Origin: Nitrospirota bacterium
GTDB taxonomy: Bacteria; Nitrospirota; UBA9217
Assembly: GCA_963818475.1 (NCBI GenBank)
Contig: CAWFSF010000006.1
Span: forward strand, 576,001 to 640,000
Length of the DNA stretch: 64,000 nt
Direction: 5' to 3'
Every line of letters starts with the position of its first letter. Positions within the stretch are counted from its first letter, which is position 1. The notes under the pieces were generated by a model, which was not told the DNA's origin, did not search any database, and saw only the letters and a program-made list of their open reading frames with translations. Positions 4,126 to 30,311 of the stretch are shown here, piece by piece. Made by a program: the position numbers and the translations under genes.

Positions 4126-7100
4126 ATGACTTTGAGCGTACTTCACATAATCGGGCGTTCCCTGCGAAGTAAAAGACCAGGTACTACGATCATCATCGGT
4201 CTACTTTGTTCGCTGTTGTTCCTCTCCTCCCTGTCCTATGCTCTTATCGATCAAACCCTTTTCGGTCCCAAGCGCTACGATCGTCTCAAGGGCAAACCCA
4301 CGGTTTACACCGACACCTTCAAAGGCTGCAAGAACGGTCAGGCCGTCATCCGCATAACGAACGGCGACAGCAAGGACACGAGGATCACGGCGGCTGAGAT
4401 ATCCGTCAATAACCACCTTATTGCATGGGACAAGGATTTCAAGAAGCAAACCCCTTACTTCGAGAGAGTCGTTACCCTCGGGGACATCAATACTCTTACC
4501 GTAAAACTTAAAAGCGGCCGACACGAAGGATTCGATAAGCAGAACAACAATCATAAAAGCGACCTTAAAAAAGCATCCGCTTCCCGGGGCCATGAAAAAG
4601 TAGATGACCATGATCATCAGAGCGCTTCTTTCCTGATCATCGAGGTTCTCGGCAGGGGCTGCGGCGGAACTTCCGACAGCATTGCTCCGATCATATCGCA
4701 CCCTCAGCCCGCGGACGGAACGCTTCTGAACGGTACCGTTCCAGCCATTTCCGTAGAATACGCTGATGACCCGAACGGTTCGGGAATCGATATCGCCTCG
4801 GCCCGGCTCGCGATCGACAACGGAGATGTGACCGCGTCATCAGTAGTCACGCTCACGGGCATCAGTTACACGCCCTCGTCCAACCTGCCCGAAGGATTCC
4901 ATACGGCGACCGTCACCGTGTCGGACCTGTCGAAGAATCCCGCGAGCCTGACCTGGCACTTCACGACTGACACCGTGGCACCCGTTGCCACGATCACTTC
5001 CCATAAGAACAACCAGTACCTCAACACCCCGACGATCAGCATTTCCGGCAGCGTAGATGATCCCACCGCAACCGTGACCGTGAACAACACGAATGCCTCG
5101 GTCTCGGGAAACACATTCACGCTGTCTAATCTTGCATTGTCCGAAGGACAGAACACGATCACGGCAGTGGCCAAAGACACTGCGGGCAACAGCGGCAAGG
5201 ACAGCATCACGATCAATCTCGATAGCATTGCACCCGCCCCCCCGGTAATAACCCAGCCTGGTACTCCCACGAACGGCGGAAGCATTACCCTTAACGGTGC
5301 TGCCGAAGCCCTGTCGATTGTCAAGATCTACGCCGGGCAAGGCGGTGCTGCTCTTGTCGGAACGGTAGCAGCCGATGCCCAGGGAATGTTCACCCTGAGT
5401 AGCGTCACCCTCGCCGAGGGCGACAATGCTTTTATTGCCACGGCAACGGATGCAACAGGGAATACCGGCAACCCCTCCACGCAGGTCTCGGTCATGCTCG
5501 ACACCGCGGTCCCGATCGTAACCATAACAGCGCCCCAGGCCGATGCCTGGTTCAAGACGCCGGCCGTAACGGTCACGGGCACGGTCAATGAAACTGTTAC
5601 AACGATCACGGTTAACGGGATGCCTGCAACGATCACGGGAGCCGGCTTCAGCCTCGCCGGGGTCCAGCTCGCGGAAGGGCAGAACACCATCGCCGTCGTT
5701 GCAACCGACCTTGCCAATAACCCCGGCGCGGGCAGCGTTCCGGTAATGCTCGACACCATTGCTCCGGTAATTACCATCACGGCGCCGGTAAATGGTTCCT
5801 ACGTAAACACGCCTAAGATCACGGTCGCGGGCAGCATCATTGAACTCAATCCCCTGGAAGTCCGGGTCAATGGTACCCAGATCCCAATTCCGAACGGAGA
5901 TTTCAGCCTTCCGGACATTGCGCTTGCAGAAGGGTTGAACACTATCACCGTTAGCGCAAAGGACAAGGCCGGGAACGAGTCAACGACGTCGGTCACCCTT
6001 ACCCTCGACACCATCGTGCCCCAGATCACGATATCCTCTCCTGCACCGGGGTTGCTCACCCGTACCGCGCAGATCGCGGTCTCCGGTACGGTAAGCGAGG
6101 CCGGCACGGAGGTCACGGTAAACACCACCGCGGCGCTCGTGAGCGGCCAGACGTATAGTGTATTGTATACGCTCAGCGAGGAGCAGAACTCCCTTGTCGC
6201 AAGCGCGACAGACCGCGCCGGGAACACCGGCACAGCAAGCATCACCGTAACGCTCGACAGCACGCCGCCGTCGCCGCCGGTCATCACACCCCTTGCCACG
6301 CCTTCACCCACGCCGATCGTCGTGGTGAACGGCACGTCCGAGCCCGCTTCCACGGTGCACATATACATGACAACGGGCCAGACCACGGCCGTTCTTGCCG
6401 GCACGGTTACTGCAGACGCACAAGGGAGCTTTAGCCTCGCAGACGTAACGCTTGCCGAAGGGATCACCACCTTTACCGCAACTGCCACGGACTCCTTGGG
6501 CAACACCAGCGACACGTCTGCCCCGGTCTCCGTCGAAAAAGACACAACTCCCCCGGTCATCACGGTCGCGAGCCCGTCCAACAATTCCTACACGAGCATC
6601 GCGATAGTCCCGGTCAATGGTTCTCTGGACGACGCAACAGCGAAGCTCATGATCAAGGGGGCAGAGGTCCCGCTCGATGGCATGAACTTCGAGACAACCG
6701 TGACGATTACCGAAGGACTGAACAGTATTTTGTTTACTGCCGAAGATCCGTCGGCGAACACGTCAAGCAAAACACTATTCATTACCCTCGACACCGTGGT
6801 CCCCGCAGTTACGATTACGTCGCCGTTGAACAACGCCCTCGTAACTTCTTCGCAGGTGTCTGTTGGCGGAACGGTGAACGAAGCCGTCACTTCCGTGAGT
6901 GTCAACGGGACCAGTGCGCTGGTTTCGGGCTCGAGCTACAGCCTCTCCACCTACACCCTTTCTGAAGGACAAAACACGATCACGGTGGAGGCGGTCGACC
7001 GGGCAGGGAACAAGGGAACCGCGAGCGTGAACGTTACGCTCGACAGCATTGTCCCGACGGTGAGTCTCTCTGCCCCGGCCCAGGCCGCGGCAGGAGCTAA

Positions 7101-10100
7101 CGTCACGCTCTCGCTGGGCGCGTCGGACGCAGGCGGCCTTAAACTCGCGGAAGTGACCGTGAACAGCGCCTCGCTCTGGTCGTACACGCTGAACTCCGAA
7201 TTCAACACATCGAACTCGATTTCTTTCACTCTCTCCCCGGACCTTGCATCAGGCAGCGTGGTGAACCTTCAGGCACGCGCATACGATACAGCCGGGAACA
7301 TCGGCACGACGACTGCCCAGATACAGGTCAATCAGGGGCCGACCGGACCTGGATACATCCAGGGCGAGGTGTACGACGACAGTAAGGGCTTACGACTTTC
7401 AGGGGCAAAGATCTCTATTTATCCTGTGAGTTCGGCGACCTCTGCGGCGGAACTATCGACCCAGGATGACGGAGGATATTTCACCGAAGCTCCCAAAGGC
7501 GATTATCTCATCACCCTGTCAAAAGCGGGTTTTACTCCTGTTGAGCGCATCGTGAGCGTAACGCCCGAGAAGAAATCCATTGCAGTAGACGCGAGACTCA
7601 CACCGGTGAATGCTGCGCAGCACCTGGTCGACAGCGCTGGTGGAAAAATATCAGCCGCCCTCACACTGTCCTCTGCGCCAACGAACAGCAGCTCCCTCGA
7701 ACTTACGATAGCGGCCGGCGCGTTCACTAATCAGGTTGACCTGCGGGTGACTGCCGTGAGCAACCAGGGACTCATGGGATTATTGCCGATTGGCTGGTCG
7801 CCGATCGGAGTTATTGACATTCGTTCTTTTACCGCAGAGGGCGCGGAGATCACCGGGGGAACGTCATTTGGAGCGCAGGGAGCGGCATTGAGAGTGCCGA
7901 CAGTCTCAGGGATAACCCTCGCGCCGTCTTCAGCGATCACGTTCGTTATATATGACATATCAACGCATCAGTGGATCGTGCAGGCTTCAGGCACGGCAAG
8001 CGCGGACGGGTTGTTCATCAGCGCCCCGATCGGATCAACCGGCCAGTATGCATTGGTCTTGCCGGACTCAAACGCCGCTGCAATCCCGGGTTCTCCGCTT
8101 TCACCGCTCAGTTCCACATCCAGTACTCTGAGCTCGACGCCTACGGGAACAGGCAGTGTTGTTCCTGCCGCAGCGCCGCCATCCATCGGTCTCAAGGCAA
8201 TGGGTGAACTGGTTTTATCGCCTGACGCGTCAGCCGGCACGCCTGACGCTTATCTCACCTCCGGCATGATCGTGAACGCCACGGTGACCGAGCGCTTCGA
8301 CCTGTTCTCCGGCGATGCCGTGGCGCCCTCTGATTACGTGCAGGACCTTGTTCTGTACAGACAGCCGTGCATTACGAATTTCAATCCGAATTCCGAATTC
8401 AGCATTCCGAATTCCAGCGATGTGGGTTCCACGTTCCCCGTAACCCCTTCGCGCGAATACACCATCGTGGACCTGCTGATGGGCAAAGTCGGCATCTCCG
8501 TCACGCTGCCCGAGCCCGACGCGAGCGGCACGCTTGTCGGTGTTGACGGCGGCCGCATCCTCGACGCGGACGGGAACGTTATCGCGGTCCCGGCAGGTGC
8601 GCTCGCCCAGACCGTGCCGATCCAGACCAAGACCGTGCCTGCGTCGACGCTGACCGGGATCGTGGGACCGGATTTCAATCTCCTCCGGGCCATTGATGTG
8701 AACCTGACGGGCCAGACGCTCGCTTCCTCAGCAGAGCTTTCGATCCCCCTGCCCGTCGGCTTCAACGCAAACCTGCCGGTCGTCATTGCCAAGGCCATCG
8801 ACGTACGCGGCGCGCAGAAATTGAAGCTCGTGGCCATTGCGCGGTTATCAGGGTCCCTGATAACCTCCGGTTTAAACGGTGTAAGCGGTTTAAACGGAAT
8901 CTTGACCTCCGGTCAATACTTCTTCCTTCAGGCCAAAGCTCCCCTCGGGTTCGTGAAGGGGACCGTGACCGCGCTCTCGGGAGCGCCCGCCTCATCAGCT
9001 CTCGCAACCATCAGCACCTGCTCGCTTGTCGACCTGACCAATGCGACAGGAAGTTATCTGGTCGCTTCCACGGTAGCTCCATTCAATGTCGCGGCAACGG
9101 ACATTTACAAGAACGACGCGGGTACCGGGGGTGGCGTGATCCTCACGGCGAACCAAACCATTACCGTTGACATTTCGATCATGGTTACGCCGCCGAACGT
9201 GACATCACTCACACCCGGCGACAACGCCGTCAATGTAGAGCCGAATGCAGCCATCGTGATCACCTTCAGCGAGCCCGTGGACAAGGCAACTTTTACAGCT
9301 GCGAATATCACATTGAAAGACAGTGCGGGCACCGTGGTTGACGGAATATTCTCCGTGAACCCCGAAAGCACTGTCGTAACTCTCTATCCCTCGACCCTCC
9401 TCACGTCCGAGGCGCGGTATACGCTGGCCGTCTCGCGGAACATCAAAGACCTTCAGGGCTATACCATGACCGGGGATGTGAACGCCGCCTTCACTACCAG
9501 GGACACCACCCCGCCGCCCATGCCAGCAGCAGGCAGCATCACCGCGACGTTCCCCGATGCCGATGGTTACGTGACGATCACGGCGACCCAGGGTTCTGCC
9601 GAGGTGAGCGGCACGGTGTTGATCATCAATGACAATACCGGAGAGATCGTTGCCATAACACCGAATTCAAATGGTTCCTTTACCGGGAAGATCATGGCCC
9701 AGCTGGGAGACGACATCAAGCTCGTGTCCATGGACGCTGCCGGAAACCAGACCCTCATCTCCTATATAGCAATGAAGAGTCCTGACGGCAAATACCTTGT
9801 TTCCGCAAAAGGCGGCATCGTCGAAGGCGAGGGCGGCACCAAACTCATCATTCCCGAAGGGGCGCTCGACGGCCCCACGGTCATCAAGATCACGCCGGTG
9901 ACCGAGGACCAGCTTCCGCAGCCCGTACCCGAGAACGCCGGGTTCCTGGCTGCGGTAAACATCGACGCCGGAGGAGCAACGTTCAAGAAACCGGTGAAGT
10001 TGTCCGTTCCCGCGCCAACGAGGATCGCGGATATCCCGGCAGGCAGTATGCCTTTTGTGAGCCAGCCCTCTGAGCTGGTGAATGCCGACGGCACGATAGA

Positions 10101-13100
10101 GAAGGTCTACGTGGTCCACGACAGCGCCAAGGTGATCGACGGCAGGCTCACCACGGCCAGTCCGCCTTTTTACGGCATTGGTCTCGGCGGATATTTTGTT
10201 TTCGAATTCCCCTATTTTACGGTCGGCATCGTGGATGGCTATACGTACCGCGATATGGACGGTGTCTATGGTTACAAACCGGAGAATGGGGATCTCCCGG
10301 TCAAGAACGCTGTGATCCGGACGCCTGCTGCCTGGCACCATATTACCTACTCTCGGGAAAACGGCTTCTATGCGGCCTTTGCCGAGATCATCGGCAATGT
10401 GCCGGGCATGCCCGACCTGGAATTCAAGTTGACGGCCATCCATCCGTTAACGATGAAGCGCGTGGACATAACGTCTATTCTCAATGCTGAAAATAATATT
10501 GTCCACCTGCAGAACATCAAACTCGCCGGTCAGAGCGATATGCCGCCGGATACAGTGCCTCCGGCCATCAGTTTCAATCTGCAGGTAGCGCCGAACAGCG
10601 CACAGGACGCGAGCCATCAGAATGCCCGGTTCATGGCAGGCACCATATCGATCGGCACGAACCTTTTGACCTCGATCAGCATTATTGATCGGGACGTCGT
10701 GTCACCGACCTTGACGATCACCTGCAGCGGTGCGTGCACCCAGTCTCAGTATTCAGCAGTGCCGACCGTGACCGCGAGCACGGTGTACACGCCTGTCAGC
10801 CAGGAGAACATGGTCGCAACAACGAAGTTTACTTATGCGCCTAACTTCGACTCCGCTATAAGCTCGAACGGAACATTCTTCACCCCCTCCGGAGCGGCCA
10901 CGTACACGCTTACTCTCGAAGCGTCCGATTCTGCAGGCAATCACAGCAGCAGAAGCCTCACCGTCCGCGCTGTTGACCCGGCATCCGTACCTACCGACGG
11001 AGTCAATGGCCGGCCCATCGTGGATGAAATCATCCCGACGGACAATTCGGGAGGCGTCAATGTCGATGCCAAGGTCGAGATCACCTTCAGCGAAATGATG
11101 CAGGAGAGCACCATCAACAACAACACTGTCTCGCTGACCAACCTCGCGACGGGCCTTAGTGAGCCAGTATCGATCGAGTTTGCCGTAGAAGGCAGCCGGA
11201 TGAAGACCATACTGCGGCCTCTGCATCTTTTGAATTTCGATACAACCTATGAAAGTCCTCGTGACACAAGGTGTCCGTGATCTTTTCCCGAATACGTCGC
11301 AGCCGGCAGGCCAGGTTGATGCGAACGGCACTATGGCACTGGATCATGATTATTACGCGGAATTCACGACCAAAGCGCCCCAGGCCTTCGACATCACCCA
11401 ATTGCCGGGCGATACCCCCCCATTCACGGGCAGCCGCGACATCGCGCTCTATACTACGACCGTCAACGATTCGGCCACGGGTACGGAAGAAGAGCGCACC
11501 TATGCCTATGTGCTGACCAGCGCCAACGGCTGGAGGGTCGTGGATGTCACCGATCCCACTAATGCCAGGGTTGTTTACAGTAATCCCTGGGGGCAAAACC
11601 AGGTCGGTCTGCGGAATGTGGCCGTAGACGAGGACCTAAAGATCATGGCCATGACCGAGCTCATCCGACAGACTGAGTTCACCGGTATGATCCGGTTCTA
11701 CGATCTCGCTTCCAACCCGGAGGCACCCCCTATCGTCGGCCATGAGTGGCTTGCGGAAGGTTCCAGCGGAGTGCCCGGCAGGATCGCAATGTCCGGGGGT
11801 TATGCCTACATTGCCACCGGCATGGTCGGCATCCAGGTCGTGGACATCAACGCGACCAGGTCGCTAGCCAGCAGGCCTCATGGAGATGCCATCGTGGGCG
11901 GCCTGCCGACTGTGGACCTGGGCTACGGAAGCCCGCTCGACATCGTCATTCATCGGGCCGGCAAGGGGCTCTTGACCACGACCACGGGATATCTGCTGAC
12001 ACTCGATATCAATCCCACGCAGCCGCAGATCCTGAAACCATACAAACCCGCAGGATTCAGCGCCTGGCGCGTGGCCGCAGCCTCTGACTTCGAATACATC
12101 GACGATCAGGGCAACACCCAGACCATGGACCTGGCGATCGTGAACGGCTTCGAGGGAAAGATCAGCACTGTCGATATCACCGACCCCTACAACCCGCAGC
12201 ACTACACGGTCAAGAACGACGCGGGCGTCGACCGCACCGACTTTTACGTCACTGATATCGTCATAAGCAAAAAAACGCGCCTTGCCTATGCCGCAGCAGG
12301 CGCATCCGTCCTCATCTTCGACCTGTCCAACCCCCGCATTCCCCGTCTGCTCGGGACGATCACGAGTGCTCCCACCGGGGGAGGGACGGGCGATACTTTG
12401 CTCGGCTACTCGATGGCTTTGATCGAGAAGGATGGGTGGGTGTATTTGGCAAACAGTGATCGCGGAATGAGATTGTTGAACCTCACCGCTTTGCAGATCG
12501 AGGTAGATCCGAAATACATCATGCTTGACAACACCGGAAAGCCGGACACGACCAAAATCACCTATCGGCTCAGCCCACCGGATTATCAAGCAGCACCGGC
12601 AAAGGTTGTAGTTTACAAGGACGGAGTGGAATACAAGTCCATCCCTACGGCGGATATCGGTGGCGATGCTGCTACATTTGCGCAATCAGGAGAGTTATTC
12701 GACCTGAATAGTACCTATTATGCGCAAGTCGTGGTAAATGCAGGAATGATCGGAGCCAACGGAGAGAAACGAAGCCAAATCATACCGTTCCTCAAGGAAC
12801 CGCCGCTGGTAACGGATTACAACAGAGACAGAAAAATCGACAACGCGGACATGATGCGTGCAGCCAAGCAGGACACGTTTTATTTCTGGACAGGCTATTG
12901 GGGTGCGGCTGTTAATGGAACAAACGATCTGACTAATTATTTCCCTGTTTATCTTAATATTAAAGATTTGCTAAATATATACGATCCGGGAAAATTTACC
13001 TATCAATTGAAGTCAGCAAACCAAAACTTGATGTTTTTATTTACTGACCTGACTCCAAACACATCTGGAAATTACCTAACTGGCAACGCAACTAGCCTTG

Positions 13101-14542
13101 ATCAGGCTACGTCACTTGCTTACGCTTTCACGTACTCAATACCCAATATCGGACTTGTACTGAATAATAATGCGGCAAACCCCTCATTTTTACAACAGAT
13201 CAGGGATAATGGAAAAGGAATCATTTTAGTTAAAGGCACGTCAGCAGGCAATGCCCCTCTTGTTCTTGAAATTATCGACACGCAAACACATGCGCTGGTA
13301 TTTTTCTCGAATTTGAATATTAGCTTGGCGAGTGTTGAACAAATGTTTCGGCAAAAAAATCTTGTCAATCAAGGTGGGGGGCCTCTTCCCAATAGTGATC
13401 CGACTATGGGCGAAAAAGATCGTTTGAGTGAGCCCCTGAATTATCCTGACAAAGAATGCACCGGTGATCCTTCGGGTAACGGTAAGAATTTCGTTTTTGT
13501 TCACGGCTACAATGTCAATCCTCAGGAGGCCAGAGAATGGCATGCTGAAATGTTCAAGCGGCTGTTCTGGTCGGGGTCGAGAGCAAAATTCTGGGGAGTT
13601 ACATGGTATGGGTACGAGTCTCAAGTAGCAGGATATTGTCCAGAATATCATAATAACGTTGTGCATGCATTCGCAACATCTTCAGTGTTGGCGAATTTCC
13701 TGGCGCCTCTACAGGGCGAAATTACCATTGCGGCACATAGTTTGGGAAACGTGGTTGTAAGTTCAGCAATCGATCACGGCGCGAACGTGAAAAACTATTT
13801 TCTACTCAATGCAGCTGTTCCAGTGGAGGCTTTCTATGCAGGAGAGCCTGAATCGTCTGATATGTACCAGTTTGACTGGACAAACAATCCGTATGACCAT
13901 TTCCTTTGGGCAACAGAGTGGCATCGTCTGTTTTATGTGCCAGGAGCGCAGAATTTGGACGAGAGATCCAAACTGACCTGGAGAAATCGGTTTGCAAATG
14001 GAAACTCTGTTAGTTATTTTGATTTCTTTTCTCCCGGCGATGATGTATTAACTAGCATTTTTGCCATTCAAGAGAAAATGAAAGGTTCTACTGGTATCGA
14101 TGGATATAATGGGAGAAATTATGGGGGATGGGGCTTTAATTTCGCTGACTACTACGAAACTTATACAACTGGTGGCGGCGGATTAATGCTCTATGATAAG
14201 GCAAATACTTTAGATCCTGCCATCTTGAAAACGAAACCATTCTTCAAGAAAGACGGGCTAATTGATGCGGTTCTCATTCCAGGTCCGTCAGGCAGTGATG
14301 CTGCAAAAAACAATAGAGATCGTATGCTTGCTGAATCTTTCCCAGCGCTAACTCCAGCGGTCGGAACGAAGGGCGTTGGTTCTTTCCCTCAGAATTATAA
14401 TTTTAACATGCAAACGAATTTTGAGACTAACAATCAGTGGCCTCGATCTGATAATAAATGGCGGCATAGCGACATGAAGAATGTGCCCTATCTTTACGTG
14501 TATACTCTATTTGATAAATTTGTTAAGCTCGGAGGATTGTAG
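4126..14542 (+). CDS. Giant secreted protein (~3,471 aa if joined): about 10 Ig-like repeats, ZU5-like domains, SbsA/Big_5 Ig, LVIVD repeats and a C-terminal alpha/beta-hydrolase; candidate polymorphic toxin; split by a +1 frameshift at 11252-11254
   Basis: Sec signal ending SYA, repeated DTxxPxxTITxP Ig boundaries and LVIVD-type repeats (WRVVDVTDP, GIQVVDI, VLIFDLSNP). The C-terminus has FVFVHGYNV, AHSLG, SPGDDVL and WRHSD. Removing one A from TAT GAAA GTC restores a continuous Ig domain (LNFDTTYEVLVTQGVRDL) across ORFs 4126-11280 and 11249-14542. Confidence 0.85.
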
Positions 14543-14544
14543 CC

Positions 14545-21600: not shown

Positions 21601-24600
21601 ATACCGATCTGGAAACGGGCCTGTTCCGGTTCTCCGATGTACCAGCCGGCACCTTTACGCTCAGGGCGACCTACCCGAACAAGTCTACGGCAGCATCGGG
21701 CTCCGGATCTGTTGCCGGCGAGGGCTCGGTCGTACCCATGAATCTTACACTTGGGCCTGTGGCAGAGGTCACGGGTAGAGTTCTCAAGGCCGATACTACA
21801 ACACCGGCTGCGGGCGGCGGGGTGCGGCTAACCTGCGGCTACAAGACGTTCAATACCATCATTGATTCCAGCGGATCGTTCCAGTTCTCCTCCATTCCGG
21901 TCCCCTGTACGCTGATGCTCTATATGGTCGACGCGGAAGGTCTGGGCATCGGCTATTATTCCGGATCGCTCTTGGCCACCGACAACGGCAAGACCGTGGA
22001 TATCGGGACCGTCACGCTCGATGACAAGGTGATCTCCGTGCTCGGCGTCAATCCTGACACCGGGGCAGTGGATGTCCCGGTGACCACGCAGACCGTGTCG
22101 ATAACCTTCTCCGAACCTGCCGATCCGGCCACGGTGAACAATTCCACGATCTACGTTCAGAAGGGGAGCACCCGGTACTGGTGGCCGGTCAGTTTGAACG
22201 CCGACCATACGATCGCATCGATCACGCCGCCCGTTCAGGGGCTCGACAGCTTCACGCTCTATACCGTGGTTGTGGCGGCCAGTGTCAAGGACCGTGTTGG
22301 GAGGACGCTGCCGAATCCCTTCAGCAGCACCTTTACGACGAGAGACACCCTGCCGCCCGCCGTACAGTCTGTGTCTCCGGCGAATGGAACCCTTCAGGCA
22401 GCCCTGGACAGCGTGATACGCGTTACCTTCTCCGAGAGCATCGCCCAGAATTCCACCGGCGGCTTCAGTCTTCTGGTGGGCGGAGCTTCCGTTGAGACGC
22501 GAGTCGACCTCGTCCAGGGAAACACCGTCGCGATCCTGACTCCGATAGCAGCTCTCTCACCCAACGCGACCTACATGGTCATGGTCAGTGGTGCAAAGGA
22601 CGCGGTCGGGAATGTGATGGCAGGGACGCATGTGTCGACCTTCGCAACCATAGATACCATCGTTCCGACCGTGACGAACCTCACGGTCACCGGCGATCTG
22701 ATCAAGGGGAACACGATATCCGCGGTTGCTACAGTGGCGGATACCGACATAGCCTTTGTCGATTTCTTCATGGATAATGTGCTTGTTGCAACAGACAGCA
22801 CCGCACCGTACACTCAGAACATAGTCCTTTCCAAGGAAGGCACCGTTTACCTCAGGGCCGTGGCTCAGGACAAGGTCGGCAACCGGGGCTTGTCATACCC
22901 CCAGCCGGCCATGGAACTGACCATTGCCCAGGACCAGGCCCCGGGTGTGTCCATAACCTCGCCCGCGAACAACAGCACGGTCAACACCGGCTCTTCGTTC
23001 AATGTCTCGGTCACGGCAACGGACGATCTCTTTGCCAAGGATATCACACTCACTTCTACAGGCGAGGTCATCGTTACCCAGACGAAGACCCAGAGCACCG
23101 GCAAGACTTTCCCCACGAACTTCAATGTTGCCGTGCCCCAGGGAGCATTGCCCGGAGGGACCATCACCCTCACGGCAGTTGCTAAAGACTCGGCAGGCCA
23201 GGCAAGTCTGCCTGCAACGATCAGCGTAACGGTTCACGACAATCTTGCGCCGGTGGTAAGCATTACGAGCCCTGGCGTTGCCACGAAGTACCTTCCCGGC
23301 GAGACCGGCACCGCAACGGTCGCCGTGAGCGATAATGCAGGAGTTGTTTCGATCTCCTGTACGGTTTCCGGCGCTGGTTCCGGAGGTCAGACGTTCACCA
23401 TCGCCCCGGCGCAGAAAACAACGTCCCAGAACTTCAATTTCACCGTGTCACCGTCAGCTGCGCCCTATGCAGGGATCACCCTCTCCTGCACTGCGGATGA
23501 CGCGAGCGGAAACCACGGTACTGCGAGCCTCGGCATGTCTGTAGCGGACATCGTGCCGCCGGTCGTGGCGACTACATCAATACCGGACAACGCCGTTAAT
23601 ATTCAGGCCCGGCCTGTTGTCGGTATCACGTTCAACGAAACCCTGCTCCCTGCCTCGGTCAACGGTGCTACTGTAAGCCTGAGCCAGGAAGGCGGCGCTA
23701 TGGTAACAGGTATTGTCGGACTTTCTGCGGACCGCAAGACCGTGAGCTTCACGCCGCAGCAGAACCTGATCATGGCAACGACCTATACGCTCACGATCTC
23801 CGCAGAGGTGAAGGACGAGGCAGGCAATGCGCTCGCAGCGGAATATGCCCTGCACTTTACGACAGACGGCACACCGCCGGCCCTGTCAGCTTCTTCCATC
23901 ACGGACAATGCCGTGGACGTGCCGGTTTCGGCCGCCATCACCGTGTCGTTCAACGAGGCCCTTGCCGTCGCAACAGTCAACGCCGGCTCAGTGGGCCTGG
24001 CCCTGAACGACGGGACCGGAGCTGCTGTTCCGGGCACGGTCGGGCTTTCAGCGGACCACAAGACCATCACGTTCACGCCGGGTTCGGACCTGGTCAAGGG
24101 CAAGACGTACCGGTTTACGATCACTTCGTCTGTCACGGATGAGATCGGGAATGCAATGTCAGGCACTATCATCATCCGGTTCACGACAGTCCTTCCGGAC
24201 ACTATGGCCCCGAAGGTCCAGTCCGTGACACCGGCGAATGGAACCCAGGGCGTTTCCGCCGCAACGGCGATCACCGTCAGCTTCGATGAACCCGTGGACC
24301 GGTCCACGGTCACGCAGGACAGCTTCATCCTGTCCTCGGCAACAGGCACCGTGCCGGGCATCATCACCTTCAACCAGAACAACACAGTCGCCACCTTCCG
24401 GCCGGCTGCGCAACTTTCGTTCATCACGAGTTATGCGGTTATGCTCAAGGCAGGGATTGCCGACCTTGTGGGGAATGCCACAACCGTCGACTACCAATCG
24501 AGCTTTATGACCGGCGGGTTCAGCATCACGAGCCCGCGCCAGAATGCCTACGTCATCCAGGGCAGGACCATTGCACTCACTGCTGCAGTGGAAGGGAGTC

Positions 24601-27600
24601 AGGGTATCTCGGCCGTGAAATTCTATGTGGACAATGTGCTGGTGGGGACAAAGACCGGCACGCCGTTCACCGTAGACTACCTCGTGCCGGTCTCGGGCGG
24701 CACCACCTATCCCGCTATTACCGCCGAGGGAGTGACTGCGGGTCCGAGCATCTGGGCTCCGGGCATTGCCGTGGTGGCGCTTGGAGAAGCGGATGCGATA
24801 GCGGACCCTGACGACGACGGGCTCACCAATGCAGAGGAGATAGAGCTCGGCACCGATCCCAACAAATTCGACAGCGATGGCGACGGGCTCTCCGACTTCG
24901 ATGAGGTTCGGACCCACCTGACAGACCCGCTCAATCCCGACACGGACGGCGACGGTCTCCTGGACGGATGGGAGATCATGTACCAGTACAACCCGATGGC
25001 CGCGGATAGCGACGGGAATGGGACGCCAGACGGCGAGGAAGATCCGGACGCAGACGGGCTCAGGAACAAGTGGGAACAATGCCTCGGCCTGAATCCCCGG
25101 GCGATCAGGACCGATGGCACGAACCTTGACGCGAACCGGGACGACGACCGCGACGGGTGGAAGAACATCGACGAGGTGAACATTTATCATACCAGCCCAT
25201 GCCAGGCAGATACGGACGGCGACGGCGTGGTCGACCCTGACGAGAAGAATATTCTCAATACGAACCCCAACGACCCGGCAGATCTGTACGGCACGGACTT
25301 CGTCTTGAGCGGAGGGAAAACGATAAGGATAGAGGGTCGTGCGTACTTCAACAGTCTGACGGTGACCGGCAATTCCACGATTGCGGCTTTAGCCGCCTCG
25401 ACAAAACAGGTTTCGAAAGTTGAGATAGAGGTAGCAGGGAGCCTGGCAATTGATGCGGGGTCCAAGATCGACGCTACGGGCAAGGGATATCTTGGCGGCT
25501 ATTCCGGCGGGAACGACAGTTACAACGGCCGGACGATCGGCAACACGACCACCGGCGGGAGCGCCTACTACAGCGGAGCGAGCTACGGCGGCTTGGGCGG
25601 TAAATACGGTACATACGCGGTGAATGCGGCGTATGGCGATCTGATGAACCCCGATGAGGTCGGCAGCGGCGGCGGCGCGTATTCCAGTTCAGCCAGTTAT
25701 GCAGGGGGGAACGGCGGCGGGTTGGTGAAGATCAAGGCCGGGACGCTGCATGTGGACGGAAGCATTTTGGCGGACGGCGAAAGCAAATTTAACGCATCCG
25801 GCTGGCTCATGAGCGGTGGGAGCGGCGGCGGGATAGTGATCAACGCGTCAACACTTTCCGGGACAGGAACGCTCAGCGCGAAAGGCGGTTCGACGTCCGC
25901 ATACAGTAATGGTACCGGAGGCGGCGGCGCGGGCGGCGGTGGGAGGATCGCAATTTACTATGATGTGCTTTCGCTTTCTACGACGAGCATCATAGCCTCG
26001 GGCGGAAAGAACGGCAACGGCACCACGGTCGCATACAACGGCGGGGCCGGGACCGTGTATCTCAAATCGAGCAGCCAGATGCAGGGTGATCTGGTTATAA
26101 ACAACAACGGTATAATCACCACGAATACGACTCCTGTCACCGGTGGGACGTATGAGAGCGTGAAGGTCAGTGGAGGAGCCACCGCATCAATGAACGGTAC
26201 GCTGGTCCCCGGCGGCGCTCTGGTCATCGCAGACAGCACCATGACCTTCGCGTCCGGATTCAGCGTAGGAGGCGATCTGCTGCTTAGCAACAGCCAGGTG
26301 ACGTTCTCCGGCGCAGTCTCCGTGCCAGGAAACCTTACGCTTGTTAAGAGCACCCTAACCTCGTTTGTTGCAATAAACGTTGCGGGCACGCTTACGCTTC
26401 AGGATCAGAGTGTCATAACCCATGCCGGAGCGACCACAACGAGCCAGTATATGCTCGATATCGAGGCTGCGCATATCACCATCGATTCAACCTCCCGGAT
26501 CGACGCTACGGGCAAGGGATATCTTGGCGGCTATTCCGGCGGGAACGACAGTTACAACGGCCGGACGATCGGCAACACGACCACCGGCGGGAGCGCCTAC
26601 TACAGCGGAGCGAGCTACGGCGGCTTGGGCGGTAAATACGGTACATACGCGGTGAATGCGGCGTATGGCGATCTGATGAACCCCGATGAGGTCGGCAGCG
26701 GCGGCGGCGCGTATTCCAGTTCAGCCAGTTATGCAGGGGGGAACGGCGGCGGGTTGGTGAAGATCAAGGCCGGGACGCTGCATGTGGACGGAAGCATTTT
26801 GGCGGACGGCGAAAGCAAATTTAACGCATCCGGCTGGCTCATGAGCGGTGGGAGCGGCGGCGGGATAGTGATCAACGCGTCAACACTTTCCGGGACAGGA
26901 ACGCTCAGCGCGAAAGGCGGTTCGACGTCCGCATACAGTAATGGTACCGGAGGCGGCGGCGCGGGCGGCGGTGGGAGGATCGCAATTTACTATGATGTGC
27001 TTTCGCTTTCTACGACGAGCATCATAGCCTCGGGCGGAAAGAACGGCAACGGCACCACGGTCGCATACAACGGCGGGGCCGGGACCGTGTATCTCAAATC
27101 GAGCAGCCAGATGCAGGGTGATCTGGTTATAAACAACAACGGTATAATCACCACGAATACGACTCCTGTCACCGGTGGGACGTATGAGAGCGTGAAGGTC
27201 AGTGGAGGAGCCACCGCATCAATGAACGGTACGCTGGTCCCCGGCGGCGCTCTGGTCATCGCAGACAGCACCATGACCTTCGCGTCCGGATTCAGCGTAG
27301 GAGGCGATCTGCTGCTTAGCAACAGCCAGGTGACGTTCTCCGGCGCAGTCTCCGTGCCAGGAAACCTTACGCTTGTTAAGAGCACCCTAACCTCGTTTGT
27401 TGCAATAAACGTTACGGGCACGCTTACGCTTCAGGATCAGAGTGTCATAACCCATGCCGGAGCGACCACAACGAGCCAGTATATGCTCGATATCGAGGCT
27501 GCGCATATCACCATCGATTCAACCTCCCGGATCGACGCTACGGGCAAGGGATATCTTGGCGGCTATTCCGGCGGGAACGACAGTTACAACGGCCGGACGA

Positions 27601-30311
27601 TCGGCAACACGACCACCGGCGGGAGCGCCTACTACAGCGGAGCGAGCTACGGCGGCTTGGGCGGTAAATACGGTACATACGCGGTGAATGCGGCGTATGG
27701 CGATCTGATGAACCCCGATGAGGTCGGCAGCGGCGGCGGCGCGTATTCCAGTTCAGCCAGTTATGCAGGGGGGAACGGCGGCGGGTTGGTGAAGATCAAG
27801 GCCGGGACGCTGCATGTGGACGGAAGCATTTTGGCGGACGGCGAAAGCAAATTTAACGCATCCGGCTGGCTCATGAGCGGTGGGAGCGGCGGCGGGATAG
27901 TGATCAACGCGTCAACACTTTCCGGGACAGGAACGCTCAGCGCGAAAGGCGGTTCGACGTCCGCATACAGTAATGGTACCGGAGGCGGCGGCGCGGGCGG
28001 CGGTGGGAGGATCGCAATTTACTATGATGTGCTTTCGCTTTCTACGACGAGCATCATAGCCTCGGGCGGAAAGAACGGCAACGGCACCACGGTCGCATAC
28101 AACGGCGGGGCCGGGACCGTGTATCTCAAATCGAGCAGCCAGATGCAGGGTGATCTGGTTATAAACAACAACGGTATAATCACCACGAATACGACTCCTG
28201 TCACCGGTGGGACGTATGAGAGCGTGAAGGTCAGTGGAGGAGCCACCGCATCAATGAACGGTACGCTGGTCCCCGGCGGCGCTCTGGTCATCGCAGACAG
28301 CACCATGACCTTCGCGTCCGGATTCAGCGTAGGAGGCGATCTGCTGCTTAGCAACAGCCAGGTGACGTTCTCCGGCGCAGTCTCCGTGCCAGGAAACCTT
28401 ACGCTTGTTAAGAGCACCCTAACCTCGTTTGTTGCAATAAACGTTGCGGGCACGCTTACGCTTCAGGATCAGAGTGTCATAACCCATGCCGGAGCGACCA
28501 CAACGAGCCAGTATATGCTCGATATCGAGGCTGCGCATATCACCATCGATTCAACCTCCCGGATCGACGCTACGGGCAAGGGATATCTTGGCGGCTATTC
28601 CGGCGGGAACGACAGTTACAACGGCCGGACGATCGGCAACACGACCACCGGCGGGAGCGCCTACTACAGCGGAGCGAGCTACGGCGGCTTGGGCGGTAAA
28701 TACGGTACATACGCGGTGAATGCGGCGTATGGCGATCTGATGAACCCCGATGAGGTCGGCAGCGGCGGCGGCGCGTATTCCAGTTCAGCCAGTTATGCAG
28801 GGGGGAACGGCGGCGGGTTGGTGAAGATCAAGGCCGGGACGCTGCATGTGGACGGAAGCATTTTGGCGGACGGCGAAAGCAAATTTAACGCATCCGGCTG
28901 GCTCATGAGCGGTGGGAGCGGCGGCGGGATAGTGATCAACGCGTCAACACTTTCCGGGACAGGAACGCTCAGCGCGAAAGGCGGTTCGACGTCCGCATAC
29001 AGTAATGGTACCGGAGGCGGCGGCGCGGGCGGCGGTGGGAGGATCGCAATTTACTATGATGTGCTTTCGCTTTCTACGACGAGCATCATAGCCTCGGGCG
29101 GAAAGAACGGCAACGGCACCACGGTCGCATACAACGGCGGGGCCGGGACCGTATATCTCAAATCGAGCAGCCAGATGCAGGGTGATCTGGTTATTGATAA
29201 TCAGGACTTGGATACTAATGATAACTCGACACCGTTGCTTTCGATTGGTTCCGGGATAGTATCAACGATCACGGCAACAAGCCTTACCAACGATTTAGCG
29301 GCCTGGACGCCAGGCTCGCTCAAGGGCGCCACGATCAATCCGAATGTCAATCAGGGAACTATTTTCACGGTTATCGATAATACCTCCACAACACTCTATG
29401 TCGACCCTGCAGATGGAGATCTGACTGCGGTTGCGACGGCCGGCAATACCTATTCCGGCGTTATACGGCTATATACGTTGACCCTTCGGGGAAAAGCCAA
29501 GGTCCTTTGCCTTGATCGCTTCGAGATCGATTCGGAATTGCATGCGGACAAAAGCAGCTTTACTGCGGTTCATCTTGCGGCAGTCAAGGCAACTCTGAGC
29601 AACGGAGCCCTGCTGACCCATCCGAATGCTTCGCTCACGAACGAATACAGGCTTGTAATGAACGTAACCGACGCCCTATCCATCGATACGAACTCTATAA
29701 TCGACGTCACGGGCAAGGGCTATCTTGGAGGGTATTCGGGAGGCAGTACCAGCATGACAGGCAGGACCGTGGGGAACACAACCGTCGGCGGGAGCACGTC
29801 GTACAATGGAGGAAGCTACGGAGGGAAAGGCGGTATCTACACCAGCGGCAGCTCGAACGCCATATATCCCGATCCGGCAAATCCAGAATCGGAAAAACAT
29901 CCTGAGCATGTGGGCAGCGGCGGCGGCGCTTATTCCAGCTCTGCCGCATACGCAGGCGGGAACGGCGGCGGTCTCATACAGATAACGGCCGGCTCGCTGC
30001 AACTGGATGGAAACATAACGGCTGACGGAGAGAATAGAATTAACACGAGCGGATATTACTATGGCGCCGGGAGCGGCGGCGGAATCCTGCTTGACGTAGG
30101 GATTCTTACCGGTGACATCACCGGAAGGGTCAGCGCCATGGGCGGGGCAAGCACGTACGGAGGCGCTGGTGGTGGCGGACGTATCGCAATCTACTATGCG
30201 GACAAGACCGGGTTTAATGGGACAGCATTATCGGATGGCGGCTTGAGTGGCAACGGGAGTACGCCTTCCAGGAACGGTGGGGCCGGAACCGTGTACTCTC
30301 AGCCAAAATAG
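15699..30311 (+). CDS. Giant surface protein or adhesin (~4,870 aa): carboxypeptidase-regulatory-like repeats, SbsA/Big_5 and other Ig repeats, TSP3-like Ca-binding repeats, five Gly-rich domains
   Basis: One uninterrupted ORF. The likely start is ATG 15699 (AAGGA RBS, signal MKKLLYILLAVLLASSLCGVSFA). It has many GxVxGxVxxxDG...GxFxF repeats, TFSExV Ig motifs, DxDGDGLxD repeats and C-terminal GGGGRIAIYY...GGAGTVY domains. Confidence 0.9.
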   Translation: MKKLLYILLAVLLASSLCGVSFAQQTPTPIANMTFSIVGMTMQAGPEYQAVPKGIASQVNTGFESNGEPISAELAAMLPKDFKVQAELTGPTYATPLTLTTTPGQPFPLPTFPMLGKYSLSNIRVVDGAGKAFMAATPQSVTIESISDPLITSVTTRPLTLQEIQDRGVVVDSTNFTVYEFTAAIGTESNQQPLNFPVLIPNQTQAQNVQDLPPPTEIGLTEQEVNVLPPNLNLPENISISGFVMAADDEMMDKLGGYALPPIPGVIIIPNNIGFLNQYFSALLMVTNGAPGASNLVVKDLKGTIIMPVGEDQTPGTDAAPGDDPLRMAKGADAYFPRTAAVINAGPDGKIGTSDDTGLLRPAESGQADFTIEGRREGTHKIDFNISATLEGLPIGPITITGKATGAVLVRNPDFSITLGHPATVRAGEEYDLFITITNTSKSIANLVSTHMDPRALSGAVMVAGEDPDKRIDTILPGSSATVKYRLLSQRTGKVTATAFVADPNVTGRFVLRVGVGELGIPLSPDSLIIPYTGSLPQNIVDAAVGLLGQAWSVATAPTGALPSDVLPISRQTIVSRANDLSEAGLRILYGEQAVKAVEDLAFDFIGSDNANVGLDSLRRRSTQGQSLNAAIAGVLQSEVQSVGAMVFQSGFADLMTYRPGHLSVITTEAPVFVQVTEAGGKRVGALGTGDLYREISYADQLTLTEGTNGQGQGTRSTLSLITKLGSASYRLDVKAAADASFDIGIVVPGASTLRQVRFSNLSLAAESNAWVELLPGTDTEYVLNIDVNGDGVADQSVVSSISTILDPGPRVVAATQMTPLVGPGGDKHGRNVAVLFSERVNKLAAEDLANYAVEENAARLVKLQPSGRMAFVLLRDGIGPFFGSAGSDGKFYGRAITVSGLTDRLGKAMDAPETRPIVITAIGPAAVVSGTVRTAQGTPISDARIRLLQPVWVERYFVREIEYLIFSEKPVNADGTYRFEYVFRNDDPAGPFMIEAVNAATNEAGQITAAVQAHGQRLSLDIFMKAKGNVTGAVLDESGNAVAGATVQLDTLNDSRQYFTTTDATGSFSFLNVRVGAFRLKAVSVALYAEGLIMGTLSEDGGNTVQNITIYKVAGIAKGDVAGKVLGTDGNPRSGVVVIVRSGERYQNWMRSGPDGSFSFTGVTAGNLTLDARDDATGETARVSGTLVENTTAVFNVLLKGIGAFECRVIREDGLSLEGFTVIAEVGYTKQAALTDASGIARFQNMPVGDIRASLPDPRNPSASPLAQGTTVLQAADETAFITLFIPFKAMATGGIQGSVYRRTGEIWPNAEVRLVTDLMSLKYKPYRSDAQGRFVIPDPDPTKNDILPLGTYYLIARDGAEIANAHVSLWYDGQVKTQDLSAAGMGSVKGTIYDQTGVDQNNNPVLMPAGADVLLFSVKPSLVGWLQFDSSTPTAVKSDPQTGKYSIPGVYAGNVSVRASNIFKPTQVLANGSLTQNGQAVTLDLTLKDTFGSISGHVLLPDGSPAGPGIGVTITYGNPPATVTVRTGDSGEFQFRPVVPAGSYRVLVEDPISTLKAQTYVAVPAGKDVPVDIRLLGRGAVIVNVVDAAGAVVSGAEITVSGSGFPQDTAAGTTDQSGSAVFLNLTEGSYAVSAKDGNNLGGRAQGSIPADNASVTVTVTLAPSGTVIGRFLKADNATLIAGGQVKLMNSSRQVIAYSSSSSEPANPGVFRFEYVPLGDFILEGFDPLTDRKGIGGARLTFNGQTVSADITVTPQGVVKGTVLNNAGTSPVDGALVSISVTGVSTWAYSTVTAPDGGYLFAGVPAGKFTISVTDPATNLRGSAAGTISSENEIARADVRLQASGGIQGTVYLPDGVTPAQNVVVSVTPGSKTVQTNAQGSFGFTGLVAGVTYSITASELGTHRVRRTSAVITYEGEVAQADVTLYGVGTVEGLVYDSDGTTVLTGAKVDLQAYGIGSITSLSVTVYTDLETGLFRFSDVPAGTFTLRATYPNKSTAASGSGSVAGEGSVVPMNLTLGPVAEVTGRVLKADTTTPAAGGGVRLTCGYKTFNTIIDSSGSFQFSSIPVPCTLMLYMVDAEGLGIGYYSGSLLATDNGKTVDIGTVTLDDKVISVLGVNPDTGAVDVPVTTQTVSITFSEPADPATVNNSTIYVQKGSTRYWWPVSLNADHTIASITPPVQGLDSFTLYTVVVAASVKDRVGRTLPNPFSSTFTTRDTLPPAVQSVSPANGTLQAALDSVIRVTFSESIAQNSTGGFSLLVGGASVETRVDLVQGNTVAILTPIAALSPNATYMVMVSGAKDAVGNVMAGTHVSTFATIDTIVPTVTNLTVTGDLIKGNTISAVATVADTDIAFVDFFMDNVLVATDSTAPYTQNIVLSKEGTVYLRAVAQDKVGNRGLSYPQPAMELTIAQDQAPGVSITSPANNSTVNTGSSFNVSVTATDDLFAKDITLTSTGEVIVTQTKTQSTGKTFPTNFNVAVPQGALPGGTITLTAVAKDSAGQASLPATISVTVHDNLAPVVSITSPGVATKYLPGETGTATVAVSDNAGVVSISCTVSGAGSGGQTFTIAPAQKTTSQNFNFTVSPSAAPYAGITLSCTADDASGNHGTASLGMSVADIVPPVVATTSIPDNAVNIQARPVVGITFNETLLPASVNGATVSLSQEGGAMVTGIVGLSADRKTVSFTPQQNLIMATTYTLTISAEVKDEAGNALAAEYALHFTTDGTPPALSASSITDNAVDVPVSAAITVSFNEALAVATVNAGSVGLALNDGTGAAVPGTVGLSADHKTITFTPGSDLVKGKTYRFTITSSVTDEIGNAMSGTIIIRFTTVLPDTMAPKVQSVTPANGTQGVSAATAITVSFDEPVDRSTVTQDSFILSSATGTVPGIITFNQNNTVATFRPAAQLSFITSYAVMLKAGIADLVGNATTVDYQSSFMTGGFSITSPRQNAYVIQGRTIALTAAVEGSQGISAVKFYVDNVLVGTKTGTPFTVDYLVPVSGGTTYPAITAEGVTAGPSIWAPGIAVVALGEADAIADPDDDGLTNAEEIELGTDPNKFDSDGDGLSDFDEVRTHLTDPLNPDTDGDGLLDGWEIMYQYNPMAADSDGNGTPDGEEDPDADGLRNKWEQCLGLNPRAIRTDGTNLDANRDDDRDGWKNIDEVNIYHTSPCQADTDGDGVVDPDEKNILNTNPNDPADLYGTDFVLSGGKTIRIEGRAYFNSLTVTGNSTIAALAASTKQVSKVEIEVAGSLAIDAGSKIDATGKGYLGGYSGGNDSYNGRTIGNTTTGGSAYYSGASYGGLGGKYGTYAVNAAYGDLMNPDEVGSGGGAYSSSASYAGGNGGGLVKIKAGTLHVDGSILADGESKFNASGWLMSGGSGGGIVINASTLSGTGTLSAKGGSTSAYSNGTGGGGAGGGGRIAIYYDVLSLSTTSIIASGGKNGNGTTVAYNGGAGTVYLKSSSQMQGDLVINNNGIITTNTTPVTGGTYESVKVSGGATASMNGTLVPGGALVIADSTMTFASGFSVGGDLLLSNSQVTFSGAVSVPGNLTLVKSTLTSFVAINVAGTLTLQDQSVITHAGATTTSQYMLDIEAAHITIDSTSRIDATGKGYLGGYSGGNDSYNGRTIGNTTTGGSAYYSGASYGGLGGKYGTYAVNAAYGDLMNPDEVGSGGGAYSSSASYAGGNGGGLVKIKAGTLHVDGSILADGESKFNASGWLMSGGSGGGIVINASTLSGTGTLSAKGGSTSAYSNGTGGGGAGGGGRIAIYYDVLSLSTTSIIASGGKNGNGTTVAYNGGAGTVYLKSSSQMQGDLVINNNGIITTNTTPVTGGTYESVKVSGGATASMNGTLVPGGALVIADSTMTFASGFSVGGDLLLSNSQVTFSGAVSVPGNLTLVKSTLTSFVAINVTGTLTLQDQSVITHAGATTTSQYMLDIEAAHITIDSTSRIDATGKGYLGGYSGGNDSYNGRTIGNTTTGGSAYYSGASYGGLGGKYGTYAVNAAYGDLMNPDEVGSGGGAYSSSASYAGGNGGGLVKIKAGTLHVDGSILADGESKFNASGWLMSGGSGGGIVINASTLSGTGTLSAKGGSTSAYSNGTGGGGAGGGGRIAIYYDVLSLSTTSIIASGGKNGNGTTVAYNGGAGTVYLKSSSQMQGDLVINNNGIITTNTTPVTGGTYESVKVSGGATASMNGTLVPGGALVIADSTMTFASGFSVGGDLLLSNSQVTFSGAVSVPGNLTLVKSTLTSFVAINVAGTLTLQDQSVITHAGATTTSQYMLDIEAAHITIDSTSRIDATGKGYLGGYSGGNDSYNGRTIGNTTTGGSAYYSGASYGGLGGKYGTYAVNAAYGDLMNPDEVGSGGGAYSSSASYAGGNGGGLVKIKAGTLHVDGSILADGESKFNASGWLMSGGSGGGIVINASTLSGTGTLSAKGGSTSAYSNGTGGGGAGGGGRIAIYYDVLSLSTTSIIASGGKNGNGTTVAYNGGAGTVYLKSSSQMQGDLVIDNQDLDTNDNSTPLLSIGSGIVSTITATSLTNDLAAWTPGSLKGATINPNVNQGTIFTVIDNTSTTLYVDPADGDLTAVATAGNTYSGVIRLYTLTLRGKAKVLCLDRFEIDSELHADKSSFTAVHLAAVKATLSNGALLTHPNASLTNEYRLVMNVTDALSIDTNSIIDVTGKGYLGGYSGGSTSMTGRTVGNTTVGGSTSYNGGSYGGKGGIYTSGSSNAIYPDPANPESEKHPEHVGSGGGAYSSSAAYAGGNGGGLIQITAGSLQLDGNITADGENRINTSGYYYGAGSGGGILLDVGILTGDITGRVSAMGGASTYGGAGGGGRIAIYYADKTGFNGTALSDGGLSGNGSTPSRNGGAGTVYSQPK
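24804..25280 (+). repeat. Bacterial TSP3-like calcium-binding repeats within the giant protein
   Basis: DPDDDGLTNAEE, DSDGDGLSDFDE, DTDGDGLLDGWE, DSDGNGTPDGEE, DTDGDGVVDPDE. Confidence 0.8.
25466..29194 (+). repeat. Intragenic tandem repeat, 1,032 bp (344 aa) unit, about 3.6 near-identical copies
   Basis: GATCGACGCTACGGGCAAGGG begins at 25466, 26498, 27530 and 28562. The differences noticed by eye are G>A at 27414 (A>T) and a silent G>A at 29153. Confidence 0.97.

Follow-up and report, generated by a model that had tools for sequence, protein, structure and literature searches.

How polymorphic toxins of diderm bacteria that rely on Sec alone reach and enter their targets is a long-standing question. 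The class itself is known: passages of the survey by Zhang et al. 2012 (PMC3482391) describe polymorphic toxins that depend on Sec and the type II secretion system (T2SS), with a signal peptide, beta-propeller, ZU5 and immunoglobulin (Ig) domains and alpha/beta-hydrolase tips, and list Tox-ABhydrolase1-3 tips and inactive transglutaminase N-termini. The stretch analysed here is 64,000 nucleotides (nt) of contig CAWFSF010000006.1 from a Nitrospirota bacterium; it is called the window, its genome is G000, and all coordinates are window positions. Between prfB and a cobalamin cluster it holds four long + strand open reading frames (ORFs), at 4126-11280, 11249-14542, 14545-15531 and 15660-30311. 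The first two encode a giant protein (giant 1) in two parts, the third a small protein (P0003) and the fourth a second giant (giant 2). As judged from sequence comparison, they reasonably probably constitute a Sec-dependent polymorphic toxin-immunity system with a linked giant adhesin. Signal peptides of all proteins were judged by eye and are hence termed signal-like; lengths are in amino acids (aa). The features are as follows:

4126-11280, + strand: giant 1 ORF A, 2384 aa, with a signal-like N-terminus (aa 1-39), an Ig-like stalk, a CarboxypepD_reg-like domain and a ZU5-like domain.
11249-11280, + strand: frameshift overlap splitting giant 1, 32 nt long, with the two ORFs in different frames.
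11249-12511, + strand: giant 1 ORF B aa 1-421, with the end of a Big_5-type domain, an LVIVD beta-propeller (Pfam match) and the junction motif.
12512-14542, + strand: exchangeable tip of giant 1, with a linker (aa 421-520), a pre-domain (aa 520-720) and a lipase-like serine hydrolase (aa 720-1097).
14545-15531, + strand: P0003, 328 aa, candidate for the periplasmic protein that confers immunity to the hydrolase tip, with a signal-like N-terminus, starting 2 nt after giant 1.
15660-23610, + strand: conserved base of giant 2, with a signal-like N-terminus, ~900 aa without a known family, and CarboxypepD_reg and Big_5 arrays to about aa 2650.
23611-30311, + strand: distal variable part of giant 2, with Big_5/Big_7 domains, TSP3 repeats and five Gly-rich heads.

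An earlier note on this DNA had described three co-oriented genes filling 4126-30311. Their orientation and extent were correct, but there are four ORFs rather than three genes, and the single ~3,470-aa protein proposed for giant 1 is in fact two ORFs (2384 aa and 1097 aa), the frameshift between them having been missed. The terminal hydrolase that the note reported is real, though its match to Pfam DUF900 (PF05990) is marginal (21.2-23.1 bits for a cut-off of 20.5); the small exported protein corresponds to P0003; and the N-terminal signals attributed to both giants were seen as signal-like sequences. Giant 2, described as a ~4,870-aa protein with a beta-sandwich stalk and repeated Gly-rich heads, indeed has CarboxypepD_reg/Big_5 arrays and measures 4870 aa from ATG 15699, its probable start, or 4883 aa from TTG 15660.

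The likeness to the Sec/T2SS toxins, as the passages of PMC3482391 present them, extends over several features: the signal peptide is the sole leader; Ig, beta-propeller and ZU5 domains make up the stalk of giant 1; a variable enzymatic tip stands at the C-terminus, with a candidate immunity gene directly downstream and displaced cassettes in relatives; and transglutaminase N-termini occur on several of the scaffolds that carry the hydrolase module. Three of the features by which those passages recognise polymorphic toxins were found, namely a conserved stalk with unrelated tips, a downstream small gene that co-varies with the tip and, in relatives, stray tip fragments accompanied by additional immunity genes. 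The locus differs from these toxins in other respects: the island is without RHS or filamentous-haemagglutinin (FHA) repeats; the stalk, junction motif, module and P0003 match no Pfam toxin or immunity family; all the tip types seen look envelope-directed and have exported partners; and a second giant is constantly linked. A literature search, with subscription journals and supplements outside its scope, returned no description of the giant-1 stalk, the module/P0003 pair or the linkage of two giants. This suggests that the stalk, cassette and partner are apparently undescribed members of a class already laid out in those passages.

The stalk of giant 1 contains, by Pfam and NCBIfam, Ig-type domains of the families Glucodextran_B (six), Big_13, Big_6, HYR and Big_5, and the ZU5-like domain lies at aa 1891-1962 of ORF A (about 9796-10011). 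A conserved junction motif at aa 390-421 of ORF B (ALIEKDGWVYLAN..GMRLLNL..DP; EKDGWVYLAN..GMRVLDLDP in the alignment of the giant-1 family) precedes the tip, and in the homologues from G012, G121, L047 and L075 similarity to ORF B stops at aa ~420-427, just past this motif. Beyond it, at least four tip types were found on the one giant-1 stalk family, each with its own downstream small gene whose product bears a signal-like N-terminus:

G000 and G044: DUF900-like module, followed by a gene of the P0003 family.
G234 and G359: DUF676/PGAP1-type esterase, followed by a gene for a Big_2-ended protein of 245/247 aa.
G121 copy B: NlpC/P60 tip (24.3 bits, cut-off 23), followed by a gene for an fn3-ended protein of 397 aa.
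G012: tip without a family match, 39% identical to that of G121 copy B, followed by a gene for an fn3-ended protein of 402 aa.
G121 copy A: LAS-peptidase-like tip with a weak murein-endopeptidase (M74/MepA) match, below cut-off, followed by a gene for a protein of 350 aa.

The fn3-ended proteins of G012 and G121 are 60% identical to one another, and G234 carries a second copy of the Big_2-ended small gene, 86% identical to the first. P0003 and the Big_2-type small protein are unrelated (hhalign probability 0.3%). A search of PDB sequences with the tails of G121 copy A and G012 gave no match. Since the tips are lipase-like or cell-wall-hydrolase-like and their partners are exported, the arrangement would follow the logic of periplasm-acting effector/immunity pairs. 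The two copies in G121 stand in tandem (locus L103, contig C36, 3-16150), the M74-like and NlpC/P60 tips each being accompanied by a small gene of its own; between them and giant 2 stand two IS200-type transposase ORFs.

In the window, the tip begins with an Ig-like linker, followed by the pre-domain and the hydrolase. The nucleophile motif HSLG lies at aa 830-833 of ORF B (about 13736-13747) and a W-x-HSD motif near the C-terminus; alignments of the hydrolase (A1, A3) showed an invariant HSLGN elbow, acidic residues and the histidine of W-x-HSD. The DUF900 match is confined to the initial ~95 residues of the fold, and 14/20 aligned members match that family at E ≤ 0.1; against PDB, the hydrolase profile retrieved pancreatic-type lipases (1gpl, E 4.6e-4). 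Searches with the hydrolase region returned 2303 representative clusters at E ≤ 1e-3, 737 of them at ≤ 1e-30. Among the 150 representative matches listed, on proteins of 262-3433 aa, the hydrolase was always C-terminal, and in 96 of them homology to giant 1 began at aa 500-560 of ORF B; the pre-domain and hydrolase therefore form a module of ~580 aa. When 26 of the 150 were scanned, none contained RHS, PAAR, VgrG or two-partner secretion (TPS) domains, and 19 had some Pfam family, their N-terminal scaffolds being transglutaminase-core plus Big_1, Laminin_G_3, RCC1, TSP3, beta-helix, cadherin/Big_9 or Glucodextran_B. Verrucomicrobiota, Kiritimatiellota and Lentisphaerota carry the module very commonly, on scaffolds of many kinds. 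As to the pre-domain of the window (12806-13408), it does not have the acidic FWxNDDxD..VDGxRDLVDFFPV stretch found in most members (A3 consensus), and retains an EF-hand-like DYNRDRKIDNAD loop.

Base composition changes sharply at the tip. The GC content at third codon positions is 0.69-0.73 in the stalk and 0.73 in aa 1-421 of ORF B, falls to 0.55 in the linker, 0.41 in the module and 0.30 in P0003, and is 0.71 in giant 2. On the left, the boundary coincides with the end of homology among giant-1 proteins, just after the junction motif; on the right, DNA of the same-genus genome G002 matches from exactly 15660 (87.7% nucleotide identity), with a different small gene, of the Big_2 type, upstream. 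By composition and homology, the tip and P0003 are a foreign low-GC cassette at about 12.5-15.6 kb.

The coupling of the two parts of this cassette was examined in 79 genome loci that contain the hydrolase, from PVC (Planctomycetes-Verrucomicrobia-Chlamydiae) phyla, Nitrospirota, Geobacteraceae, Acidobacteriota and others. An ORF of the P0003 family lay directly 3′ of the hydrolase in 67, often overlapping it, while 10 others ended at a contig edge, which makes 67/69 among the informative loci. In a sample of 401 genomes of the phylum, the P0003 gene adjoined the hydrolase in all six loci, from five genomes. The converse test, with 76 metagenome loci of P0003, revealed hydrolase sequence directly upstream in 47 and none in 11, 18 being uninformative. 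Many of these loci are arrays: at least two P0003 ORFs were present in 13 of the 79 and 14 of the 76, with paralogues inside one array being 27-69% identical, and 3′ remnants of the hydrolase, each followed by an intact P0003 paralogue, were found in 5/79 and 13/76. All the remnants start at profile position 194 or later, past the HSLGN nucleophile at 157. Remnants of P0003, or a pseudogene, without any hydrolase were seen in G002, G011 and G198. Such arrays would fit displaced toxin-tip/immunity cassettes, whereas a folding helper would give no reason for them. In one contig of a metagenome-assembled Lacunisphaera genome (L034, 3-8346), four hydrolase/P0003 units follow one another, two hydrolases being near full length and two being nucleophile-less 3′ remnants; the P0003 copies there have 42-69% mutual identity.

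P0003 itself had no relatives in Pfam, NCBIfam or PDB sequence searches, and in the ESM Atlas it was closest only to clusters of 'hypothetical protein'; the pre-domain returned nothing of use there. An alignment of its family (45 sequences, 42-65% identical to the query) contains 27 invariant columns. A complex prediction for the hydrolase domain (A1) and mature P0003 (A2, aa 25-328) gave a score of 0.00, a value that counts neither for nor against binding.

The second giant accompanies the first across genomes. In the 401-genome sample, the N-terminus of giant 2 was found in 11 genomes, the stalk of giant 1 in nine and both in seven; the six genomes with a single giant are fragmented assemblies (180-490 contigs). 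Giant 1, the small gene(s) and giant 2 follow one another in this order on single contigs in G000, G012, G234, G359 and G121, the last with giant 1 as a tandem pair. The G044 contig starts inside an ORF that carries the module, and a P0003 homologue and then giant 2 come after it; a contig break interrupts the P0003 gene of G404 immediately ahead of giant 2; and short contigs of G018, G191, G002 and G121 (C13) have an immunity-type small gene just upstream of giant 2. The order in G403 is apparently reversed, with giant 2 before giant 1, the adjacency spanning a contig break. G004 and G099 were uninformative for this linkage. The giants were adjacent in every informative genome, these representing four families of the phylum sample and two further genomes with differing tips and flanks.

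Giant 2 belongs to a family of at least 155 proteins (2738-7165 aa), the named sources of which include Geotalea uraniireducens, Geobacter argillaceus, Desulfuromonadales, Acidobacteria and Caldilineaceae. In the same-genus genome G002 it is shared with the window at the identity given above, starting exactly at 15660. The homologues from G121, G234, G359 and G044 align with giant 2 over aa ~8-2650/2750, and beyond this their heads vary, being Gly-rich in G121, LVIVD-like propellers in G044 and G359, and Ig repeats in G234. Four of the five Gly-rich heads in the window are 1032-bp units 99% identical to one another (register 25461-28856). Downstream of giant 2 in G359 (L109, contig C7, 443-9814) lie a 474-aa ORF without a family, a gene for an 1887-aa Laminin_G_3/Big surface protein and a Zn-dependent phospholipase C gene.

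Other delivery systems resemble the locus in part. With contact-dependent inhibition (CDI; CdiB/CdiA/CdiI) it shares a giant exoprotein, a toxin placed after a conserved motif, an immunity gene directly downstream and, in relatives, orphan modules. Unlike CdiA, giant 1 has no TPS domain or FHA repeats (Pfam, NCBIfam), and a regular-expression search found no VENN pre-toxin motif, a different junction motif being present. The ShlB-type transporter (PF03865) had no match in G000 or in any of 14 control genomes, a result that counts neither for nor against CDI. CdiA toxins are mostly cytoplasmic nucleases, while the tips of the giant-1 family are of lipase or cell-wall-hydrolase types. A search for Rhs/YD proteins gave no RHS Pfam match, only isolated YDxxG strings being found. 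[quoted passage not shown]

Giant 2, for its part, can be compared with the giant repetitive surface adhesins exported by type I secretion systems (T1SS) that bear repeats-in-toxin (RTX) sequences, such as LapA or SiiE. It resembles them in its long extender array of beta-sandwiches, its Ca-binding TSP3 repeats and its variable distal head, but it has a signal-like sequence at the N-terminus rather than a T1SS signal at the C-terminus, no RTX repeats (Pfam, NCBIfam) and a conserved 900-aa N-terminal region without a known family. No sorting domain of the type IX secretion system (T9SS) was detected, the sole match being one of 28.6 bits to the PorU model (cut-off 420). Overall, no Pfam or NCBIfam family for RHS, TPS/FHA, RTX, autotransporter, VgrG/PAAR or a T9SS tail scored above cut-off in the island proteins. 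Membership of CDI, Rhs, T6SS, T9SS or RTX systems was rejected, their defining domains being absent from these proteins.

These results bear on what the earlier note had made of the locus. A swappable toxin with its immunity gene is supported because the tips are variable, the small genes are paired with them and the synteny is favourable: giant-1 homologues have variable C-termini, each followed by a different signal-bearing small gene, and the giants lie together in every informative genome. The absence of the families listed above, and the lack of fit to CDI, Rhs and T6SS, which the note had also asserted, withstood examination when features of membership were sought. Its picture of the two giants as one apparatus, one of them binding the target, overreaches, drawing as it does on gene linkage and the variable head of giant 2, and the word 'undescribed' was too strong for a class that passages of PMC3482391 lay out.

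In the toxin-immunity system that we propose, giant 1 would be exported via its signal peptide and would present the Ig stalk, the ZU5-like domain (possibly self-cleaving) and the LVIVD propeller. An exchangeable tip would follow the junction motif, consisting here of the pre-domain and the lipase-like serine hydrolase, and this hydrolase may attack the membrane lipids of a neighbour cell from the periplasmic side. P0003, itself exported, would be the cognate periplasmic immunity protein, and giant 2 a genetically linked partner, which most likely acts as an adhesin in holding or selecting the cells to be attacked. The route across the outer membrane of the producer may be the T2SS. Toxicity, neutralisation by P0003, action in the periplasm, contact dependence and ZU5 cleavage are inferences. 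A more specific and tentative form of this idea, which we hold rather unlikely, is that the giants jointly form a new contact-dependent device of diderm bacteria, independent of every known specialised delivery system, in which giant 2 selects and holds the target, the envelope-degrading tip of giant 1 is brought to the target's surface and released at the ZU5 domain or the junction, the pre-domain aids the crossing of the outer membrane and P0003-type proteins protect kin.

Several observations weigh against a toxin-immunity system. The island encodes no dedicated exporter; giant 1 is frameshifted in the present genome; no orphan cassette was found in this genome, displaced or orphan tip fragments and extra immunity genes occurring in relatives; the related genomes compared are not independent samples; the peptidoglycan-hydrolase assignment of two of the tip types is weak; and in two hydrolase loci (L013 and L059) P0003 is truly absent despite 8-10 kb of downstream sequence. 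For an immunity protein, P0003 also shows uncommonly strong conservation, including a large number of invariant polar residues, and an enzyme or structural helper would fit it too. The module is abundant in PVC bacteria that degrade polymers, where its scaffolds are of the lectin, cadherin and beta-helix types and a digestive or remodelling role is conceivable; such roles are raised as a possibility for surface proteins combining ZU5 and lipase domains in a passage of PMC3482391. Giant 1 might accordingly be no weapon, but a surface enzyme for degradation or matrix remodelling with P0003 as its dedicated helper (a chaperone, activator or anchor), in parallel with a lipase-specific foldase or a Tle-activating Tli; a passage of a preprint (bioRxiv 10.1101/2023.03.28.534661) reports an immunity protein that activates its lipase. 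This explanation seems quite improbable to us: it leaves unexplained the nucleophile-less remnant arrays with their intact, divergent P0003 copies and the P0003 genes without an upstream hydrolase (11/58 informative loci), nor would it account for the occurrence on one stalk of lipase-type tips in some members and cell-wall-hydrolase-type tips in others, with an exported partner particular to each, or for the different cassettes of close relatives. Alternatively, the toxin-immunity core could be as proposed, with giant 2 being just a co-inherited adhesin and the tip being released, for example by ZU5-type cleavage, as a diffusible bacteriocin-like enzyme. This would agree with the presence of a ZU5-like domain in the stalk, with the reversed gene order in G403, with the occurrence of the cassette on many scaffolds without giant 2 nearby (only L075 among the 79 hydrolase loci had giant-2 sequence within 10 kb), and with a precedent, since a passage of PMC13556192 reports diffusible polymorphic toxins. 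Yet the giants are linked in every informative genome despite differing tips and flanks, and no terminator-like site was found between giant 1, P0003 and giant 2; we consider diffusible release unlikely.

The frameshift raises a further alternative, in which the toxin-immunity system is decaying in this genome: the frameshift would be real, ORF B would have no signal peptide, no toxin would be exported, and the immunity gene and giant 2 would persist. The two ORFs do lie in different frames with a 32-nt overlap, and decayed P0003 genes exist in G002, G011 and G198. Giant 1 is a frameshifted gene in the present assembly, because its homologues are uninterrupted at 11249-11280: P0137 (3433 aa, full-length), which matches aa 34-2376 of ORF A at about 38% identity, and the G012 homologue both read continuously across the split point. 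No public sequencing run covering this stretch was found, the best matches having 0.04-0.05 of the sampled words in common with it. Further interrupted genes occur in the window. The hypF gene is cut into three overlapping ORFs, with HypF_C and HypF_C_2 in separate ORFs and the Sua5 domain split at profile positions 82/80; the ORF for the large subunit of the [NiFe] hydrogenase is without profile positions 1-145; and HypC and HypA appear fused in one ORF. These split genes suggest either assembly indel errors or decay of the hydrogenase cluster. Because they are broken in a like manner, the frameshift in giant 1 is probably an assembly indel rather than decay, and both of its ORFs are otherwise open over 3.4 thousand aa with the catalytic motifs intact. 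Decay is therefore a possibility that we regard as doubtful. The intervals of the hypF and hydrogenase-cluster genes concerned are 55795-58425, 52223-53320 and 54607-55146.

If the toxin-immunity interpretation is right, a large unnamed lipase-type toxin/immunity pair would join the catalogue of interbacterial weapons, and possibly a little-studied means by which sediment bacteria attack their neighbours; homologues are very widespread in the PVC phyla and occur also in Geobacter-type bacteria, Nitrospirota and Acidobacteriota. Should the more tentative contact-dependent device also hold, the DUF900-like module and P0003 would rank, with those 2303 clusters, among the most widespread unrecognised toxin-immunity families. 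The architecture of two giants, with a toxin carrier linked to a polymorphic adhesin, would make Sec-only toxin delivery in diderms testable, and the cassette offers a clean case of exchange with sharp boundaries of composition and homology. The family has cultured carriers: Geotalea uraniireducens is named for homologues of both P0003 and giant 2, both on a 5,136,364-bp contig, which establishes co-presence only.

The edges of the block were located by comparison with the same-genus genome G003:

2314-3258, - strand: prfB, left neighbour of the block.
3500-4125, + strand: left margin of the accessory block, where giant 1 has its putative promoter region, with the end of G003 homology and promoter-like sites.
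30312-30427, + strand: right edge of the accessory block; G003 homology restarts at 30427 (94%), and a cobalamin riboswitch begins at 30410.

Nucleotide homology with G003 runs over 412-3499 (85%) and ends at 3499. The region 3200-4200 contains eight promoter-like sites where 1.6 are expected, these being consensus matches only. The 26.9-kb block is absent from G003, which has 5.3 kb of unrelated genes in its stead, among them response regulators, a Fic/DOC protein and a PilZ response regulator (L199, contig C8, 3017-8286). Since G003 holds other genes at the same site, the stretch from prfB to the B12 cluster varies within the genus; by this comparison, the block at 3.5-30.4 kb (about 27 kb) is an accessory island. 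Flanking genes vary among the genomes compared, an integrase and IS200-type transposases being among them, and across these genomes the flanks contain no conserved secretion gene. The possibility that the island or its neighbourhood encodes an exporter of its own was considered and rejected, the flanks varying between genomes and none containing one. Four secretin genes are present in G000.

To the right of the block lies a cluster with a cobalamin riboswitch, a ThiC-family gene and B12-transport genes. Tandem cobalamin aptamers (30410-30627 and 30700-30876) stand upstream of the ThiC-family gene (30968-32314); a terminator-like hairpin with a 14-bp stem (30669-30701) sits between them and probably belongs to the first riboswitch. 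A third cobalamin aptamer (37201-37319) lies upstream of a gene for a TonB-dependent receptor (37341-39194). Further along, an S-adenosylhomocysteine (SAH) riboswitch (45297-45386) is placed directly 5′ of the S-adenosylhomocysteine hydrolase gene (45394-46803), next to a gene for S-adenosylmethionine (SAM) synthetase (44017-45177).

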